Shown here piece after piece: positions 3 to 63,146 of a stretch of DNA of 64,000 nucleotides. Location of the stretch: the NCBI GenBank assembly GCA_015661515.1, contig DQVX01000016.1, forward strand, positions 7 through 64,006. Direction: 5' to 3'. The position numbers and the translations under genes are program-made. Position 1 is the stretch's first letter, and the number at the start of each line of letters is the position of its first letter. Source of the DNA: Nanobdellota archaeon. Its GTDB lineage: Archaea; Aenigmatarchaeota; Aenigmatarchaeia; Aenigmatarchaeales; SZUA-1535. The notes below the pieces were generated by a model, which made no database searches, had not been told where the DNA came from, and saw only the letters and a program-made list of their open reading frames with translations.

Positions 3-506
3 GAGCACAAAGGAGCAAATGCTATGATAACAGGGATAATTCCAAATTATCGCTACATTATACTAACTCATGCTCTCTTAAAAAACTTCGATAAAGAAGA
101 AATAAAAGCTATAATTGCTCATGAGATTGGACATATAAAAGGAAAACACCTTTGGATAAACGCTTTTGTAACTATCTCTTGGTTCCTTTTCTGGTTTGGA
201 ATAGTTTATGGCGTTTCGAATATTGGAGTTAATATATCTTCATCTCCTCTAATCTTTTTTATAGTATTATCCTTTGCAATACTTTTCTGGAATTTAGTAA
301 TACAGTCGTGGATAATAAGGAGAAATGAATTTAAAGCAGATGAATTTGCCGCAAAAATATGTGGTAAAGAAGTTACTATTAGAGCTCTAAAGAAACTAGC
401 TGAAATAAATTTAATTCCTGAAAAAACAGGCAAATGGTTTGATGTTCTAAGTATGCATCCTTCTATTGATGAAAGAATAAAACATTTGCAAAAGTTATTG
501 ACCTAG
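3..506 (+). CDS. M48/HtpX-like Zn metallopeptidase, C-terminal part (5' end lies outside window)
   Basis: Frame is open to the window edge. HExxH motif 'AHEIGHIKGKH' is followed by hydrophobic TM segments, typical of HtpX/M48 membrane peptidases. Confidence 0.5.
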   Translation, partial: EHKGANAMITGIIPNYRYIILTHALLKNFDKEEIKAIIAHEIGHIKGKHLWINAFVTISWFLFWFGIVYGVSNIGVNISSSPLIFFIVLSFAILFWNLVIQSWIIRRNEFKADEFAAKICGKEVTIRALKKLAEINLIPEKTGKWFDVLSMHPSIDERIKHLQKLLT

Positions 507-510
507 AAAT

Positions 511-1173
511 TCATTTCTTTGCAATAATAAAGCCATGATCTTTTTCAAAAGGATCTAGCATACGCCATTCTAAAATTTTCCAGCCTGCTTGAGAAAGTTT
601 TTCAACTTCTGCTTGACATATTTTTTTTGGTTTTTGCGTTACATCTATGCTTCTTGTTTTTATAGCAAGGAAAAGTATACCATTTTGCTTTAAAAATTCA
701 TCTGCATTGCGCATTGCTATTTCTGTAGCATCTGGTTGAGCTATATCAACGTAAAGTGCGTGTACTTCTTCAATCCAAGAATATTCTTCTGGTTTTCTAG
801 CATCTGCAAAAATAGGAGCTATATTTTTTCTTTCTTTACATACTGGCAAAAGCTCTTTGAAACAGCGGTCAGAAAATTCAACAGCATAAATAAAACCATT
901 GCATAATATGTCAGAAACATAGCTTACTGTATAGCCATGAGCAGCTCCTAAATATAGCATAATCCAATCACGTTTTTCAGGGAAAGGCAAATGCTCAAAA
1001 CCTTTTGCAACAGCTGCTGCAAGCTTTGAGCGGAAAGGATTAAATTCTCTATATTCAACCCCTTTGATTTTTATTATTTTTTCATCAGAATACCGAAAAC
1101 CTTTTACAAGATTTTCTGTATAAATTTCTCTTCCTTTTACAAAAATCCCAGGAAATTTTTCTTTTAACTGCAT
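511..1173 (-). CDS. flpA: fibrillarin-like rRNA/tRNA 2'-O-methyltransferase
   Basis: 220 aa. N-terminus 'MQLKEKFPGIFVKGREIYTENLV' and the SAM-MTase core match archaeal fibrillarin over the full length. Confidence 0.9.
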   Translation of the reverse strand: MQLKEKFPGIFVKGREIYTENLVKGFRYSDEKIIKIKGVEYREFNPFRSKLAAAVAKGFEHLPFPEKRDWIMLYLGAAHGYTVSYVSDILCNGFIYAVEFSDRCFKELLPVCKERKNIAPIFADARKPEEYSWIEEVHALYVDIAQPDATEIAMRNADEFLKQNGILFLAIKTRSIDVTQKPKKICQAEVEKLSQAGWKILEWRMLDPFEKDHGFIIAKK

Positions 1174-2128: not shown

Positions 2129-2373
2129 TTTAAAAGCACCTTGGCAACAGTTTCGGAAATGTTATATATAGGTGTGTTATTATTTATTTCTATTTCTTTT
2201 TCCACATCCTTAATTATTTTTTCTTCCATTTCTTCTATTCTTTCTCTTTCTTCAGAAATATAAAGCCATTCAGGATATTTTGCCAATTTCTTGTAATTTT
2301 CATCTTTTCCGACATCATAAAACGGAATTTTCATATCCCTTCCTTGCAATTTTTTGTATTTTTTCATCCTCAT
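2116..2373 (-). CDS. hypothetical small protein (85 aa)
   Basis: ORF only. Overlaps the upstream 137-aa ORF by 59 nt, which suggests coupling. Confidence 0.3.
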   Translation of the reverse strand: MRMKKYKKLQGRDMKIPFYDVGKDENYKKLAKYPEWLYISEERERIEEMEEKIIKDVEKEIEINNNTPIYNISETVAKVLLKCLK

Positions 2374-2728
2374 TTTCCCAAGGTGTTACCATAAGCTCAA
2401 TAACTTCTTCTTTAGTTAAGGTTTCACAAAGTTTTTGTGAATAATAGCACTTGTTTTCTTTATCCCAGTCAAACGGATATTCTTTAACTATACCATTATT
2501 TTCTTTTTGTATCCAAACTCTTTCAGTAATATTTCCTGCATTAAGATATTCGGCTAAAAACTGAGAAAACATGTATGAACAATCCTTAGGATTAAGCTCA
2601 TAAATCTTCCAATGATATTCTGGAAGTTTTTCACCAGAAGTTGTTATTATTTCTCTCAAAACTTCTTTTTCTTCAGGTTTTGCTATTTTCTTTCTTTTTA
2701 TACCTTTTAGTATTCTTTTATTAACCAA
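2315..2728 (-). CDS. hypothetical protein (137 aa)
   Basis: ORF with plausible composition; no recognisable motif. Confidence 0.4.
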   Translation of the reverse strand: MVNKRILKGIKRKKIAKPEEKEVLREIITTSGEKLPEYHWKIYELNPKDCSYMFSQFLAEYLNAGNITERVWIQKENNGIVKEYPFDWDKENKCYYSQKLCETLTKEEVIELMVTPWENEDEKIQKIARKGYENSVL

Positions 2729-3142
2729 ACTTGCTTTATATGGATTAAAAGATACATATCCATCAGCCGTAAAACTTAAAGGAGTATAATTCCTTCAATG
2801 TTCTTAGTCGGCACTTGCCTTGCAAGACCTATATAAATTTCTTCATTTTCTCTTTCTTCAAATTTTAAATGTGAAGTAATTTCATCTATATCTATGCCAT
2901 ATTCCCGAAGATAATTCTTTCTTATTCTATCTCTTGTTTCTTCTATTTTTCTTTTTTTCTCTTTTATTTCACTAATAGAAGTTGCATAAGGAAAACTCCA
3001 TGTAAGGAGGAGAGCGGTTTGGACTTAAAAGGAAAGCAGGAGCATTTGCCCCCGATCTCCTCCTAAACCTGTGAAAAATATAAACATAAGGAAAATTACA
3101 AATATCCAAATTTAAAAATTAAAAAAGAAAAAGAAATAAACT

Positions 3143-3289
3143 TCATTTTCTAAAGTTTTTATGTTTCTGAAAACACTCTCTACAATATACAGGTCTTCCT
3201 TCTTTTGGTTTAAATGGAACTGTACATTCCTTTCCACAATCGCTGCATATTGCTTTATGAAATGTTCTTTTTTGGAATCTCCTATTCAC
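3143..3289 (-). CDS. small CxxC-x17-CxxC zinc-ribbon protein (48 aa), not in ORF track
   Basis: GTG start sits 6 nt after a 'GGTGG' SD-like element. Protein 'VNRRFQKRTFHKAICSDCGKECTVPFKPKEGRPVYCRECFQKHKNFRK' has the conserved C-x2-C-G-K-E...VPF-x-P...RPVYC-x-x-C zinc-ribbon pattern of a widespread small-protein family. The antisense 67-aa ORF 3161..3364 is rejected in its favour. Confidence 0.6.
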   Translation of the reverse strand: MNRRFQKRTFHKAICSDCGKECTVPFKPKEGRPVYCRECFQKHKNFRK

Positions 3290-3422
3290 TTCTTTCCACC
3301 TTTTAAGCCTCGGAGAAAGAGATCAAAAACCAAACTCTTTCTCCAAGGACTTACTCTTAATTAAGGGAATTAATAGTATTTAAAGGTATGGGTCTCATTG
3401 AATTAAGAGTTTTGTCTAACAC

Positions 3423-4605: not shown

Positions 4606-5841
4606 TCACCATTTTACTTTCTCTATTTTTATTACATCAAGCTCAACCACTTTTGCTGGAACTCCTAAAATCTCTGCTACACTTGGACGAGTTCTTCCAT
4701 TATCTCCTGAAACCAGCTCTTTTACATAAAGTCCTGCAGAACATTTTATTATAAGCTCTACTGTTTTTGAATTTATATATTTCCATTTTATAGCTTTTAC
4801 TTCTCTTTTTCTAAGCTTATCAGCCCTTCTATGAAGAACTCTTTCAGGAGTTTGCTGGTTTATAACTCCAATAAGTTTTCTTAGTTTTTTAAGCTCTTCT
4901 TTTTTTACAGGTTTTTCAAATTTTACAACCACTCTATATGTTTTATCCGGAGAAGCTTCTTTAACTTTTCTTACCATTTCTCTTTCTACAAGTTTAAGTC
5001 CTTTTACTTTAACTTTTTTAGAAGCATTTATTTGTTTTGCAATTTCTTTAAGGTTTATTTTTCTTTTTTTAGGTTCAATTATTTCTATAACAAATGCTCT
5101 CCAGGCAAGGCATCGAGCATCTATATCTTCTCGACCCATTCCGTGAAATTTTGTATCTTTACCTTTAGTTGCTTTAAGCAAAGGTTTTGCTATAATTTGC
5201 TCTACAGAAGTTTTATATTTCCCTGGTGTTCCCCATTTGCATTGCGGAATTCCTCGAACTAATTTTTGATAATAACCAAAAATAAAGAGAGAAGATATTT
5301 GAATTTCTATTTTTGGTTTGCCTTTTTCCCAGTCAAAAAGTATAACAACTTCTGGCTTTTTTAATTCAGCTGTTTTTTTCATTTTCTGAGAAATTAATTT
5401 TCCTAACTCTCTGTTAAGCTCAGCCTTTAAAGGTTCGCAATAATCCATTCCTGCCAATTTCCACATTTCTTCTTCCTTTTCCAACATTTCTTTTGAAGGT
5501 CGATTTCCTACTAAGAATGTATTAAACTCTATTTTTTCAAGTTTTTTGATAGCCTTTTCAGCTATTTTTTCAAGTTTTTCAAATATATTTCCGCAAAAAT
5601 AACAATTAAGTTTTTTCTTAGAAGAGGTTTTTTTAGTTAACCTAAAATTATATTCATTGAAATTTTCTTGAGCAAAATTCTCAAGCTCTTGTGCTTCAAT
5701 AAGAAATGCTGCAAAATCTCTTATAATTCTACCTCTTTCTTTATTACTCATTCCACTAAGCATTTGAGCAAAAACTCTTCCTAAACAATTATCGCAAATA
5801 GGTTTTTGGAGTAAATTTTTTATTCTTTCAATTAACTCCAT
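4606..5841 (-). CDS. pus10: tRNA pseudouridine synthase Pus10 (psi54/psi55)
   Basis: 411 aa. N-terminal 'ICDNCLGRVFA' zinc-binding start typical of archaeal Pus10; THUMP-like middle; basic C-terminal catalytic domain. Confidence 0.6.
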   Translation of the reverse strand: MELIERIKNLLQKPICDNCLGRVFAQMLSGMSNKERGRIIRDFAAFLIEAQELENFAQENFNEYNFRLTKKTSSKKKLNCYFCGNIFEKLEKIAEKAIKKLEKIEFNTFLVGNRPSKEMLEKEEEMWKLAGMDYCEPLKAELNRELGKLISQKMKKTAELKKPEVVILFDWEKGKPKIEIQISSLFIFGYYQKLVRGIPQCKWGTPGKYKTSVEQIIAKPLLKATKGKDTKFHGMGREDIDARCLAWRAFVIEIIEPKKRKINLKEIAKQINASKKVKVKGLKLVEREMVRKVKEASPDKTYRVVVKFEKPVKKEELKKLRKLIGVINQQTPERVLHRRADKLRKREVKAIKWKYINSKTVELIIKCSAGLYVKELVSGDNGRTRPSVAEILGVPAKVVELDVIKIEKVKW

Positions 5842-9781: not shown

Positions 9782-9892
9782 GCCCCGGTAGCTCAGCTGG
9801 TTAGAGCGGTCGCCTCGTAAGCGACAGGTCGAGGGTTCGAAAATAAGTATAATATTTTCTAGAATTTTCAGAAACTCCCTCCCGGGGCTCCA
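9782..9892 (+). tRNA. tRNA-Thr(CGT) with a non-canonical ~34-nt intron in the T-loop; CCA encoded
   Basis: Acceptor 'GCCCCGG/CCGGGGC'; D-arm 'GCTCAGCTGGTTAGAGC'; anticodon arm 'GTCGC CTCGTAA GCGAC' (anticodon CGT); T-stem 'GAGGG...CCCTC'. The T-loop 'TTCGAA' is interrupted by 9842..9875 before T60. Confidence 0.8.
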
Positions 9893-11078: not shown

Positions 11079-11199
11079 GTATTTTTTATTAAACCGCGAT
11101 TCTTATAAATCTCGAGTTGAATCTATTTCCAATTAAGAACAGGTAGAAAATTGGTTTTATTAAGTTTTATTAACTCTTTTATCTTGTTTATCGCATTTC

Positions 11200-12033
11200 T
11201 TACTCTAAAAGTTTTTCAAAAAAAGCTTTTGCTGGTTTTTCTATATCTTTTGCGTAACCTCCTTCTAAAACCATGAAAAATTTTTTAGCAGTTTGTTTAA
11301 AAGGTTTTACAAGCAGTGCTATTTTTTCAAAATCTTTTTCTTTAAGTAATAATTGAGAAAGATTATCTTTTTCATAAGTATCAAATCCCAAGGAAATAGC
11401 AAAAATATCAGGTGAAAATTTTTCTACAATTTTTAAAGCTTTTATAAGCACTTTAATGTAAAATTCTCCTTTTGTATATGGAGGTAGTGCGAAATTTATA
11501 CAATTTTTTCTACTTTCTTTTCCTGTCCCAGGAAAAAGTGGATATTGATGCAAAGATATGTAAAGCACATTTTCTTTACCAAAGAAAATATTTTCTGTTC
11601 CATTCCCATGATGCGCATCTATATCTAAAATTACTGCTTTTTCTTCTTTCTTTTGAATACTTTTTAGTGCTACTGCTATATTATTTAAATAACAAAATCC
11701 TCCTAAGAAATTTTTTCCTGCATGATGCCCTGGTGGCCGTGAAAGGGAAAAACCATTAACTTTTGCTGCTTTAACAGCGCAAGATACAGAAGAAAGAATA
11801 TAATCAAAATCTAATTTTGGAGTATCTAAATCAAAATACTCTTTGTTTTTTAGTTTTTTTATGAATTCTTTTTCATGAACTTTTAACAACAAAGTTTCAT
11901 TTATTTTTCTTGGTTTGATAAAGCTTGCTCCTAATTCTTCTAAAACCAATTTTATTTTTTCTACTCTTTGAGGATTCTCAGGATGAAAGGGAAAAATATA
12001 ATTTAAGCATTTTTCATCAAACACAACTTTCAT
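11200..12033 (-). CDS. histone deacetylase/acetoin-utilisation (AcuC)/acetylpolyamine amidohydrolase family protein
   Basis: 'GFCYLNN' and 'DIDAHHGNGTE' motifs of the arginase/deacetylase superfamily. Confidence 0.8.
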   Translation of the reverse strand: MKVVFDEKCLNYIFPFHPENPQRVEKIKLVLEELGASFIKPRKINETLLLKVHEKEFIKKLKNKEYFDLDTPKLDFDYILSSVSCAVKAAKVNGFSLSRPPGHHAGKNFLGGFCYLNNIAVALKSIQKKEEKAVILDIDAHHGNGTENIFFGKENVLYISLHQYPLFPGTGKESRKNCINFALPPYTKGEFYIKVLIKALKIVEKFSPDIFAISLGFDTYEKDNLSQLLLKEKDFEKIALLVKPFKQTAKKFFMVLEGGYAKDIEKPAKAFFEKLLE

Positions 12034-42074: not shown

Positions 42075-42171
42075 AGCGGGGTAGGGCAGCCAGGAGTGCC
42101 CGCCGGGCTCATAATATATTATTTAATGAGACACCCGGAGGTCGGTGGTTCAAATCCACCCCCCGCTACCA
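42075..42171 (+). tRNA. initiator tRNA-Met(CAT) with canonical 19-nt 37/38 intron; CCA encoded
   Basis: A1:U72 acceptor pair ('AGCGGGG/CCCCGCT'); three G-C pairs at the base of the anticodon stem ('CCGGG/CCCGG'); loop 'CTCATA|A' split by intron 42114..42132; T-arm 'GGTGG TTCAAAT CCACC'. Confidence 0.85.
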
Positions 42172-42740: not shown

Positions 42741-42917
42741 GCCGAGGTAGCTCAGCCTGGTTAGAGCGCCAGACTCATAAGCTTTGCTTATGAGTGATGA
42801 GTTTGCCGAGTAATGAGGCAACGATGAATAGCAGGCTGAGAACTGAGATATCTGGAGGTCGCGGGTTCAAAAACTACAGCCCTTAAACAAAGCTTGAAAC
42901 TCCCGCCCTCGGCACCA
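42741..42917 (+). tRNA. tRNA-Met(CAT) (elongator or Ile2-type) with two introns: 70-nt canonical 37/38 intron and 29-nt T-loop intron; CCA encoded
   Basis: Acceptor 'GCCGAGG/CCTCGGC' (G1:C72); D-arm 'GCTCAGCCTGGTTAGAGC'; anticodon arm 'CCAGA CTCATAA ... TCTGG' with intron 42781..42850; T-arm 'GCGGG TTCAAA[42872..42900]T CCCGC'. Confidence 0.8.
42794..42846 (+). ncRNA. box C/D sRNA embedded in the 37/38 intron of tRNA-Met
   Basis: C 'GUGAUGA' (42794-42800); 13-nt guide; D'-like 'UGAG' (42814-17); C'-like 'CGAUGAA' (42822-28); 14-nt guide; D 'CUGA' (42843-46). The spacing matches archaeal C-12-D'-x-C'-12-D architecture. Confidence 0.6.
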
Positions 42918-42943
42918 TTTTATTTTATTCCTTGCGCCGGTAG

Positions 42944-43068
42944 TCTAGTGGTAGGACCCCGGCTTCCCAAGCCGGTGACCCGGGTTCGAAAGAAAACAAA
43001 AATATAAAATAGAGATTGAAGTAATTTTTCCTTTATCTTTTTGGCCGAATCTCCCGGCCGGCGCACCA
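42944..43068 (+). tRNA. tRNA-Gly(CCC) with ~61-nt T-loop intron; CCA encoded
   Basis: Acceptor 'GCGCCGG/CCGGCGC'; anticodon arm 'CCGGC TTCCCAA GCCGG'; T-arm 'CCGGG TTCGAA[42991..43051]T CCCGG'. Confidence 0.75.
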
Positions 43069-48180: not shown

Positions 48181-48339
48181 GGGCCCGTAGCTCAGCCTGG
48201 TAGAGCACCGGGCTTTTAGCGTTGAGCTAAAAGCTCGCTAAGCCGTAAGGCGATGGCGAAAGCGGAAGATACCCGGGAGTCGCGGGTTCAAAATTAAAAG
48301 TGGAAAAATTATTAAATGAAACTCCCGTCGGGCCCACCA
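48181..48339 (+). tRNA. tRNA-Lys(TTT) with two introns: 52-nt 37/38 intron and 30-nt T-loop intron; CCA encoded
   Basis: Acceptor 'GGGCCCG/CGGGCCC'; D-arm 'GCTCAGCCTGGTAGAGC'; 'CCGGG CTTTTA[48219..48270]A CCCGG'; T-arm 'GCGGG TTCAAA[48293..48322]T CCCGT' with a G:U closing pair. Confidence 0.75.
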
Positions 48340-54844: not shown

Positions 54845-54967
54845 GCGCCGGTAGTCTAGGGGTAGGACACTGCCCTGCCACGGCAGAGGCCCGGGTTCGA
54901 AATATAACTAATATTAATATCACAGCTCTTTACTATACCTTGTTCGAATTTCCCGGCCGGCGCACCA
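54845..54967 (+). tRNA. tRNA-Gly(GCC) with ~49-nt T-loop intron; CCA encoded
   Basis: Acceptor 'GCGCCGG/CCGGCGC'; D-arm 'GTCTAGGGGTAGGAC'; 'CTGCC CTGCCAC GGCAG'; T-arm 'CCGGG TTCGAA[54902..54950]T CCCGG'. Confidence 0.75.
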
Positions 54968-61856: not shown

Positions 61857-62261
61857 ATGGTGTATTTTTCAGAAGTTAGAATAAAAACACAACCTAAGAA
61901 TTTTTATGTTTTAACACATAAAATCCAAGAAATTGTTGAAGAAAGCGGTGTTAAAGATGGTTTATGTATTTTATTCCTTCCAAGTACAACTTCATTTATT
62001 CTTCTTCAGGAAAATTGCGACTTACTTAAAGAAGATTTTAAAAAACTTTTTGAAAAATTAGCTAGCGAAAATAAAATTTATGAGCATCCAGACAATGCAC
62101 ATTCTCATTTGCTTACAGGAATTTTCGGAGGAGAAAGAATAATTCCGATAAAAGATGGGCGATTAGATTTAGGAACATGGCAAGATATTATTTTTTATGA
62201 AGCTGATGTAAAACCGAGAGAAAGAATAATTAAAGTCATAATCATCGAATTAGAACTATAA
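61857..62261 (+). CDS. yjbQ: YjbQ/UPF0047-family protein (secondary thiamine-phosphate synthase-like)
   Basis: 134 aa; 'HSHLLTGIFG' and 'DGRLDLGTWQDIIFYEAD' conserved blocks. Confidence 0.75.
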   Translation: MVYFSEVRIKTQPKNFYVLTHKIQEIVEESGVKDGLCILFLPSTTSFILLQENCDLLKEDFKKLFEKLASENKIYEHPDNAHSHLLTGIFGGERIIPIKDGRLDLGTWQDIIFYEADVKPRERIIKVIIIELEL

Positions 62262-63146
62262 AATTATTTTCATACCATCCTTAGCTACTGTTGCTTTTGA
62301 AAAATATTTTTTTGCTTTTTTTACGAGCTCAGAATGGTTTTTATATCTTTTACTTATATGCGTGAGAATAAGCTTTTTTACTTTATATTTTTTTGCAAGC
62401 TCACAAACTTCTTTAAAAGAAGAATGTGCTCTACCTTCTACTGGCTCAACAAAAGTAGCATCATGTATAAGCACAGAATTAGAAGCTTTTTCAAATAATT
62501 TTTCAACAGGTAAAGTATCTCCAGAATAAACTATTCTCCTCCCCTCTATTTTTCTTGCTACTTCACTAATTTCAATAATTTTTCCATCAATTTTAATTTT
62601 TCCTTTTTCTTTTAGTAATTGAATTTTGTCTTCCGGTATTCCAAGTTTTTTAATTTTAGAAGGAATTATTTTCCAATGATCTTTTTCTTGAAATATATAT
62701 CCAACTGCAGGAACTGAATGAACAACAGGCAAAGAAAAAATTTCATACTTTTTTTCTTTAACAATTTTTTGTTCTTCTTCTATGGAAACATCAATAGGTT
62801 TTATTTTAAATCCAAAACTCCAATAGCTAAGTTCTAAAATTGTTTCTACAAACCTTTCTGCTTCAGGAGCATATATTTCAAGCATTTTTTTCCTTCCAAG
62901 CATGTGTAAGGTTTCTATTAATGGTATTAGCCCAGCAAAATGATCTGCATGCCAATGAGTTATAAATACTCTTTTTATTTTCATTGGTGATATACCTGCT
63001 TTTTGCAAACCTAATTGGGCGCATTCTCCACAGTCAAAAAGCATATAATCGCCTTCATATTTAATAAGAATTGCAGGATGCTTCCTTTCTAAAGTAGGTA
63101 TTGCAGAACCGCTTCCTAAAATAATTATTTCTATTGGTACAGGCAT
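62256..63146 (-). CDS. rnz: ribonuclease Z (tRNA 3' endonuclease, metallo-beta-lactamase fold)
   Basis: 'ITHWHADHFAGL' HxHxDH motif, 'VVHSVP' and 'LTHIS' downstream His ligands; 296 aa. Confidence 0.7.
   Translation of the reverse strand: MPVPIEIIILGSGSAIPTLERKHPAILIKYEGDYMLFDCGECAQLGLQKAGISPMKIKRVFITHWHADHFAGLIPLIETLHMLGRKKMLEIYAPEAERFVETILELSYWSFGFKIKPIDVSIEEEQKIVKEKKYEIFSLPVVHSVPAVGYIFQEKDHWKIIPSKIKKLGIPEDKIQLLKEKGKIKIDGKIIEISEVARKIEGRRIVYSGDTLPVEKLFEKASNSVLIHDATFVEPVEGRAHSSFKEVCELAKKYKVKKLILTHISKRYKNHSELVKKAKKYFSKATVAKDGMKIIL

Follow-up and report, generated by a model that had tools for sequence, protein, structure and literature searches.

The closest described case to the introns reported here is that of ARMAN-2, a DPANN archaeon whose pre-tRNA-Cys is interrupted in the T-loop, between nucleotides 59 and 60 (59/60), by an intron with a relaxed form (hBH) of the archaeal bulge-helix-bulge (BHB) splice motif, which is cut in vitro by the epsilon2 and (alpha-beta)2 types of the splicing endonuclease EndA and barely by a strict enzyme (PMC3239211, PMC3488258, PMC5829648). 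The position is also listed among the recurrent non-canonical intron sites of archaeal tRNAs (PMC4090602). Thermoproteales average 0.84 introns per tRNA gene, compared with 0.21 for archaea overall, and Pyrobaculum calidifontis has 71 introns in 46 tRNA genes (PMC8450103); multi-intron tRNA genes and large-scale intron transposition in this group are attributed to Sugahara 2008 and Fujishima 2010 where PMC4033280 and PMC4090602 cite them. Here, we describe a 64 kb stretch of archaeal DNA (contig DQVX01000016.1 of assembly GCA_015661515.1, hereafter the window), in which five of the six tRNA genes carry an insert of 29-61 nucleotides (nt) at 59/60. These inserts are very probably genuine archaeal tRNA introns, removed by proteins and belonging to the relaxed hBH class.

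The likeness to ARMAN-2 tRNA-Cys lies in the DPANN host, the position, the relaxed hBH motif with the T-stem as exon helix, and the shortness of the introns, which measure 13 nt there, 13 nt in the loci L005 and L006 (L-numbers denote loci fetched from other genomes) and 29-61 nt in the window. The difference lies in the distribution: in ARMAN-2, 56% of the tRNA genes are disrupted, "at various positions", whereas the present clade, known here from sequence alone, fills one non-canonical site (five of six genes in the window and 18 of 19 elongator genes in the clade) and spares its initiators. With the Thermoproteales, it shares a very high intron load, that is, eight introns in the six window genes (five at 59/60 and three at the canonical 37/38), or about 1.3 per gene, a scale of splicing otherwise reported mainly for that group. 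It further shares, in relatives of the host, near-identical introns across tRNA species and across canonical and non-canonical positions. However, the Thermoproteales belong to the TACK superphylum and have an (alpha-beta)2 EndA with the crenarchaeal loop, their introns are scattered over many positions rather than concentrated on 59/60, and the window's own introns are without the module shared among those of its relatives. Both the 59/60 position and the hBH mechanism are therefore already known in archaea, and mechanistically these are ordinary non-canonical BHB introns. An earlier reading of the window made from the letters alone (the sequence-only reading) had called the shared position unusual. 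That does not hold for the site, which is a known recurrent one, but it does hold for its near-uniform occupancy across the clade; the spared initiators, the high load and the combination of a fixed site with free sequence are likewise unusual. In a full-text literature search, no paper combining T-loop introns and DPANN was found within the collection searched.

High-GC islands and a CCA-anchored acceptor-stem scan yield exactly six tRNA genes in the window, all on the + strand and all with an encoded CCA. Their features are as follows, where a vertical bar marks the splice junction.

9782..9892, + strand: tRNA-Thr(CGT) gene, CCA encoded; exons 9782-9841 and 9876-9892, a 77-nt ARAGORN cloverleaf once excised
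9842..9875, + strand: tRNA-Thr 59/60 T-loop intron, 34 nt, 18% GC, 3' end CAGAAAC|T
42075..42171, + strand: initiator tRNA-Met gene, without T-loop intron; Rfam tRNA match of 51.2 bits and ARAGORN call
42114-42132, + strand: initiator tRNA-Met canonical 37/38 intron, 19 nt
42741..42917, + strand: elongator tRNA-Met(CAT) gene, two introns
42780..42849, + strand: elongator tRNA-Met canonical 37/38 intron, 70 nt, with C/D-box-like motifs (GTGATGA ... ACGATGA ... CTGA)
42872..42900, + strand: elongator tRNA-Met 59/60 T-loop intron, 29 nt, 3' end TTGAAAC|T
42934..43068, + strand: tRNA-Gly(CCC) gene, 16 nt downstream of tRNA-Met
42991..43051, + strand: tRNA-Gly(CCC) 59/60 T-loop intron, 61 nt, 3' end CCGAATC|T
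48181..48339, + strand: tRNA-Lys(TTT) gene, two introns
48219-48270, + strand: tRNA-Lys canonical 37/38 intron, 52 nt, 54% GC
48293..48322, + strand: tRNA-Lys 59/60 T-loop intron, 30 nt, 3' end ATGAAAC|T
54845..54967, + strand: tRNA-Gly(GCC) gene
54902..54950, + strand: tRNA-Gly(GCC) 59/60 T-loop intron, 49 nt, 3' end TTCGAATT|T (GAATT|T)

All five interrupted genes have the same layout: the T-stem and TTCRAA are followed by an AT-rich stretch of 29-61 nt, and then by T, the 3' T-stem, the acceptor strand and NCCA. The exons have a GC content of 62-72% and the inserts one of 17-38%, in a window whose G+C content is 29.3%. The sequence-only reading had already placed inserts of this length at 59/60 in five of the six genes and had left the initiator as the only one without, and both claims stand; the initiator has just its 37/38 intron. 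Its coordinates hold for four of the genes, while tRNA-Gly(CCC) starts at 42934 and not at 42944; and the end GAAAC|T, which it gave to four inserts, belongs to three (Thr, Met and Lys), since tRNA-Gly(CCC) ends in GAATC|T and tRNA-Gly(GCC) in GAATT|T. Except at their ends, the five inserts show no similarity to each other.

On the raw window, ARAGORN (with and without its intron options) and Rfam detect no tRNA gene beyond the initiator, and ARAGORN at lowered stringency only adds spurious calls. Rfam at relaxed thresholds gives partial tRNA matches for Thr (9782-9837), Lys and Gly(CCC), each of which ends at the T-loop. After in silico excision of the five T-loop inserts and the three 37/38 introns, ARAGORN finds perfect cloverleaves with TTCRAAT loops for all six genes; a canonical cloverleaf with a 7-nt T-loop is thus regained on removal of the inserts, as is also seen from the intronless orthologues described below. 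An unbiased excise-and-rescan pipeline finds the five interrupted genes in the window, compared with one hit in total over 30 first-order Markov resamples. This test was used in place of a loose count of T-arm/GAANNT motifs, which is not significant (12 in the window; Markov resamples average 5.7). Split or permuted tRNA genes were also considered, and are ruled out by exons that are contiguous and collinear in six of six genes.

In an archaeal BHB, pairing joins the last four loop-proximal bases of the exon, ahead of the 5' cut, to the stretch just upstream of the final two intron bases, and at the 3' cut one bulged exon base remains beside the exon helix. The inserts have a common 3' end, (Y)GAA-NN|T, which is complementary to T54-T55-C56-R57: TTCA faces TGAA in Met and Lys, TTCG faces CGAA in both Gly genes, and TTCG faces AGAA in Thr, with one mismatch. 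In unconstrained folds of the five whole pre-tRNAs, the acceptor stem is complete (7/7) in all, the T-stem has 5/5 or 4/5 pairs in four genes, and the central helix H formed by this pairing is complete (4/4) in four genes, that of Gly(GCC) being extendable to 6 bp (TTCGAA:TTCGAA). For Met, the unconstrained minimum free energy (MFE) structure has a T-stem of 5/5, a helix H of 4/4 and a 3' bulge of 3 nt. The 3' splice site accordingly lies, in the predicted folds, in a 3-nt bulge between the exon helix h and a helix H of about 4 bp. This is what the earlier reading had proposed to look for when it suggested folding the junctions in search of relaxed motifs and running ARAGORN on the genes, and the folds, as well as ARAGORN after excision, come out in its favour. 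A strict motif (hBHBh'), in which the 5' site also lies in a 3-nt bulge closed by a helix h' contiguous with H, was not found. Among the window introns, only that of Lys has a predicted intron-side helix by the 5' bulge, which is weak, AU-rich and offset by 1 nt; in Met, both Gly and Thr, the 5' site is in an open loop or within an extended helix. Since the 5' site is not cleanly closed, the introns are classed as relaxed hBH rather than strict hBHBh'.

The pairing was also followed over 24 junctions from the window and its relatives. The pair between nucleotide 54 and the third-last intron base (54:i-3) is UA in 20 junctions and UG in four, as is 55:i-4; 56:i-5 is CG in all 24, and 57:i-6 is AU in nine, GC in five and GU in two. 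Overall, 96% of the cells pair, compared with 81% in shuffles (0/500 reach the observed value) and with 19-66% when the partners are slid; for the cells of helix H, the share of pairs is put at 92%. These controls are a better covariation test than the Fisher test of G57 versus a C partner, which over 15 junctions is not significant (p = 0.28). The three 37/38 introns of the window follow the same pairing rule, in that loop nucleotides 1-4 pair with intron positions -6 to -3 (CTCA:TGAG twice and CTTT:GAAG), followed by 2 nt and the cut; the 2+1-nt bulge and the 5-bp stem are shared as well. The site 59/60 is therefore the geometric twin of 37/38: in each arm, a 5-bp stem carries a 7-nt loop, and the cut falls between positions 6 and 7 of that loop. 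The sequence-only reading had seen a conserved 3' junction in the inserts. A shared GAA-NN|T end indeed exists, but it looks conserved because this strand is obliged to pair with the invariant T54-T55-C56-R57 to build the central helix, and it co-varies with R57; it is not a signature of shared ancestry.

The host comes from a hot vent, has a small genome and, as judged from its genes, is a DPANN archaeon with its nearest relatives among the Aenigmatarchaeota, since in species-representative genomes the closest SRP54 genes are 82% ("uncultured archaeon") and 78% ("Candidatus Aenigmatarchaeota archaeon", a metagenome-assembled genome, MAG) identical. Loci of relatives were reached through proteins that neighbour the tRNA genes (Nre and a KH protein) and not through introns; therefore, the sample is unbiased towards introns. 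In these loci, the clade tally gives a 59/60 intron in 18 of 19 elongator tRNA genes, with lengths of 13-220 nt, and in none of four independent initiator genes (window 42075-42171; L108 5476-5632(-); L110 10530-10603(-); L111 1303-1403(-)). The Nre of the Nre-anchored loci is 70-83% identical, and tRNA-Thr directly follows the Nre stop codon. In the Thr orthologues of L081-L085 the junction is kept, with an intron 3' end of CCAGAAA(C/A/T)|TCCCTC, and the CAGAAA end of the Thr intron is found in L081, L083 and L085. In L081, introns interrupt tRNA-Thr(TGT) at 11188-11467(-) three times (in the D-loop, at 37/38 and, with 118 nt, at 59/60), and tRNA-Ser has a 47-nt 59/60 intron; those of Arg(TCT) and Val(TAC) in L089 are 48 and 220 nt long. 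Among the KH-anchored loci, L111 and L112 combine an initiator without T-loop intron with 59/60 introns in Met (78 nt) and Gly(CCC) (93 nt); L108 has such an initiator, 59/60 introns in Met (214 nt) and Val (63 nt), and an intronless Gly(CCC); L109 has 59/60 introns in Leu, Ile and Met, and L110 in Lys and Leu, beside an initiator that is entirely intronless. Beyond the clade, two Woesearchaeota-like loci carry 59/60 introns of 13-18 nt in Met and Pro.

Some further observations concern the same genes. The T-arm of the initiator looks equally suitable, yet the 59/60 intron is never present there (0/4), while the initiator's 37/38 intron is missing from L110 and reaches 83 nt in L108. Further non-canonical sites, in the D-loop, exist in relatives and were not seen in the window; for example, tRNA-Pro(CGG) of L006, at 663-791(+), has D-loop, anticodon and T-loop introns. 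A trait of the whole phylum was considered and rejected, since the distant Aenigmatarchaeota loci L012, L014, L019 and L021 carry ordinary tRNAs. The SRP54-anchored loci of the nearest genomes (L001 and L002) are not syntenic for the window tRNAs.

The comparison with orthologues separates exons from introns. In tRNA-Met (L108, L109 and L111), identity is 95-100% for the exons and, across relatives, 89-99% for the C/D-box-like 37/38 intron; the 59/60 intron, 29 nt in the window versus 44, 78 and 214 nt in the orthologues, is unalignable. For tRNA-Lys, comparison with the L110 orthologue gives 83% identity for the 37/38 intron and 33% for the 59/60 intron (57 nt in L110). The canonical 37/38 introns of the clade, which co-occur with 59/60 introns in the Met and Lys genes, thus lie in the anticodon arm and are conserved in sequence (83-99%), one of them being guide-like, whereas the 59/60 introns evolve freely except at their ends. 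tRNA-Gly(CCC) is particularly informative, as its 59/60 intron differs in presence among close relatives: it measures 61 nt in the window and 93 nt in L111, at 327-489(-), and is absent from L108. The L108 gene (149-222(-), GCA_054030055.1) is identical at 71 of 74 positions to the spliced product predicted for the window, and its junction runs uninterrupted as TTCAAAT-CCCGG. Similarly, the intronless initiator of L110 is identical to the spliced initiator of the window (78/78). On these alignments, nearly identical exons beside free intron sequence bear the signature of purifying selection on the exons, and the inserts would be introns under selection for removal rather than products of decay.

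With regard to the 37/38 introns themselves, Rfam gives a weak sR11 C/D match to that of tRNA-Met (27 bits, E = 0.66), below the gathering score, and by-eye complementarities of this intron to the acceptor 3' strand and the D-arm are unconvincing as guide targets. The same two-intron layout of tRNA-Met is seen in the Woesearchaeota-like L005 at 215-354(-) and L006 at 2480-2621(-). The Lys 37/38 intron (48219-48270) shares a GCGATG(G/A)...GCGAA(A/G) stretch with the 37/38 intron of Arg(TCT) in L089, which may represent a conserved element that is structured or binds a protein.

The gene structures, the h-B-H pairing with its covariation, the conservation of the site in relatives and the agreement with intronless orthologues are all observed in silico, and every in silico test run agrees, as does the ARMAN-2 precedent, with the earlier suggestion of non-canonical BHB-type introns that call for an endonuclease of relaxed specificity. 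Several points nevertheless weigh against reading the inserts as spliced hBH introns. Splicing itself is deduced from letters and folds, and in some genes the letters by themselves would let the cut be shifted by one base either way; the 59/60 assignment was chosen from the BHB geometry and the consensus loop. Four of the five window introns do not have their 5' splice site in a clean 3-nt bulge. In Thr, helix H has three of four pairs (U54-A, U55-A and C56-G, with the mismatch G57·A), in the MFE structure of the whole Lys precursor a competing pairing displaces the T-stem, and position 57 is unpaired in 8 of the 24 junctions. Neither EndA (PF01974/PF02778) nor RtcB was found among the 57 window open reading frames (ORFs) of >=150 aa or among the Pfam-annotated genes of the fetched relatives' loci. 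Finally, the gene survey covers the 64 kb window, and intact duplicates elsewhere in the genome would be out of its reach.

Of the other explanations, the one that survives best accepts splicing and differs as to why the site is occupied: selection, rather than neutral spread, would keep 59/60 filled, because an intron there would break the attachment (att) sites that viruses and plasmids use in the T-arm and 3' half of tRNA genes. The idea, together with integration sites of Sulfolobus spindle-shaped virus (SSV) in the anticodon loop and T-arm, is found in the literature (PMC4090602, PMC4033280), and a site held in 18 of 19 elongators despite complete turnover of the intron sequence would suit it. 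However, no integrase, att site or provirus was seen beside these genes, the initiators are left unprotected, the Gly(CCC) intron has been lost in one lineage, and a spreading intron family in relatives explains the high occupancy without any benefit. Consequently, we regard such protection as unlikely.

Removal of real introns by a non-BHB route, either self-splicing or a dedicated ribonucleoprotein or nuclease, is very improbable. The poorly structured 5' sites of the window introns and the lack of an EndA gene among the window ORFs would favour it; but the h-B-H half-motif is present and co-varies, EndA demonstrably cuts an identical architecture in ARMAN-2 (PMC3239211), and the Met and Lys genes also hold ordinary 37/38 BHB introns that follow the same pairing rule. 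Group I and group II introns have a conserved catalytic core and are typically longer than 200 nt. The inserts, with 13-220 nt and no conserved core, are too short and variable for either group; self-splicing introns of these groups were rejected for the window, where the inserts are 29-61 nt long and have no Rfam match at the gathering threshold or at E <= 1.

Even less credible is that the five genes are tRNA pseudogenes disrupted by T-loop insertions, with functional intact copies elsewhere. It is true that the window is only 64 kb of the genome and that standard finders do not call these genes. Yet the exon parts all still give perfect cloverleaves, the inserts carry the T-loop complement that the splice motif requires, and the site is likewise interrupted in orthologues of at least five other assemblies, where the exons remain 95-100% identical while the intron sequence is free. 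Moreover, 18 of 19 elongator genes of the clade are interrupted, and about 150 kb of its DNA yielded a single intact one, Gly(CCC) of L108, which in that genome takes the place of the interrupted version and is no duplicate of it. Least probable of all is retention of the inserts in the mature RNA as an expanded T-loop or extra arm, given that the T-loop/D-loop interaction is universal, that a length of 13-220 nt between orthologues without conserved sequence is incompatible with a structural role, and that Gly(CCC) has an intronless orthologue.

For the preferred reading, protein splicing of hBH introns, the enzyme, the joining of the exons and the sequence of steps can be sketched by analogy with established archaeal tRNA splicing. 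The 5-bp T-stem would act as the exon-side helix h, and intron positions -3 to -6, (Y)GAA, would be the partners of U54-U55-C56-R57 in the central helix H of about 4 bp. The 3' splice site would lie in a 3-nt bulge made of the final two intron bases and U60, and the 5' site within A58-A59 and the first intron base, in a loop that the short AT-rich introns of the window would close poorly. A broad-specificity EndA would cut both the 59/60 sites (A59|N and N|U60 at the T-loop) and the 37/38 sites, and an RtcB-type ligase would join the exons, restoring the TTCRAAT T-loop. Since U54-R57 would be sequestered in helix H, folding and modification of the T-loop (e.g. by the Pus10 encoded in the window) should be possible only after splicing. 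As to the type of enzyme, the literature links an alpha4 EndA with an "L3" insertion to a higher degree of tRNA gene disruption in several DPANN lineages (PMC5829648); therefore, "heterotetrameric or epsilon2", as the sequence-only reading had put it, appears too narrow.

The intron sequences of relatives bear on where these introns came from. There, many introns share a nearly invariant 5' module of about 40 nt, set 1-2 nt downstream of the 5' splice site; it consists of TAAGGGCGCCGCNCCCGCCCTTA, an 8-9-bp hairpin with the arms TAAGGGCG/CGCCCTTA, followed by TCAACCCTTCCTCACC. Joint Genome Institute (JGI) metagenomes were scanned for its pattern, and the fetched loci were searched locally with an nhmmer profile. 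Twelve strong copies (nhmmer E <= 1e-5) were obtained, every one of them within a tRNA intron; the site is 37/38 in Thr, Ala and Arg(TCG), and 59/60 in Thr, Ser, Arg, Leu, Gly(TCC) and Asn. The carriers are L081 (11188-11467(-) and 14079-14208(-)), L089 (1147-1311(+)), L091, L094, L096, L098, L100 and L107, and the module occurs in at least eight tRNA species, in several assemblies and metagenomes; 11 of the 17 metagenome matches are chance ones, in unrelated GC-rich or eukaryote-like DNA. No copy was found in the window or in the viral contigs scanned, and the module corresponds to no Rfam family. Similar intron sequence across tRNA species and positions, as expected of a transposing family, is thus seen in relatives and not in the window. 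The module represents either a mobile family of introns or an intron RNA that has a function, and its occurrence at both 37/38 and 59/60 fits the two arms as interchangeable targets. In a second family of T-loop introns, seen in tRNA-Met of L108 (1021-1377(-)) and tRNA-Gly(CCC) of L111 (327-489(-)), the two ends are complementary, 5' GNRGAACGCAGRG ... GCGTTCYSGCCGRGA 3' (GCGTTC 3'); they form a closing helix on the intron side and bring the motif nearer to the strict BHB.

The Thr intron of the window has the ends AATAAG ... CAGAAAC, and its 118-nt L081 orthologue ATAAGGG ... CAGAAAC. These shared ends suggest that the short AT-rich introns of the window may be decayed remnants. The introns would have spread among tRNAs within the DPANN clade, the window keeping the sites but holding short, degenerate, AT-rich introns. 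In a stronger and quite tentative version, which we consider possible but do not favour, a modular mobile intron colonised one site, 59/60, of essentially the whole elongator set and spared the initiators, with the window at a late, decayed stage. The portable 5' hairpin module (A|TAAGGGCGCCGCNCCCGCCCTTATCAACCCTTCCTCACC) would supply the intron-side helix, and the intron 3' end would need to match only the first four loop bases; with so small a requirement, such an intron could hop between 37/38, 59/60 and different tRNAs. If so, relatives that differ in presence or absence, e.g. at Gly(CCC), would be a natural system for the gain and loss of archaeal tRNA introns. In any case, the constant site with free sequence, the module shared by 37/38 and 59/60 and the presence/absence differences bear on how archaeal tRNA introns spread.

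There are consequences for annotation, too, as standard finders see one of the six tRNA genes in the window. Training of the BHB models in tRNAscan-SE 2.0 drew on Crenarchaeota/Euryarchaeota and Thaumarchaeota (PMC8450103), and "missing tRNAs" in DPANN MAGs have earlier been attributed to undetected disrupted genes (PMC5829648). A simple 59/60 rule, that is, TTCRAN, an intron ending in (Y)GAA-NN, and U60, would recover missed DPANN tRNAs. Moreover, the clade should possess an endonuclease able to process the hBH precursors of almost all its elongator tRNAs, and, since nearly all elongators carry hBH introns, such splicing would be essential for translation. The identity of this enzyme would test whether the alpha4 design with L3 of DPANN confers broad specificity.

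The window also encodes Nre, SRP54, deoxyhypusine synthase, a ThermoDBP-related protein, fibrillarin (511-1173(-)), Pus10 (4606-5841(-)) and the ribosomal proteins S3Ae and S15. Pus10 is the archaeal psi54/55 synthase, and its target bases pair with the intron in the precursor. A metallo-beta-lactamase protein at 62256-63146(-) has a weak match to the tRNase Z N-terminal domain, yet the CCA is encoded in all six tRNA genes. A sub-threshold Rfam match to HIV_FS2 at 3303-3354 (30.9 bits versus a gathering score of 44) is most likely due to chance. It lies within the region 2129-3422, which is without a long ORF and has only two (-) fragments of 137 and 85 aa, a 48-aa zinc-ribbon-like ORF (CxxC...CxxC) at 3143-3289(-) and a small GC island at 3031-3065; this region may be a decayed gene.

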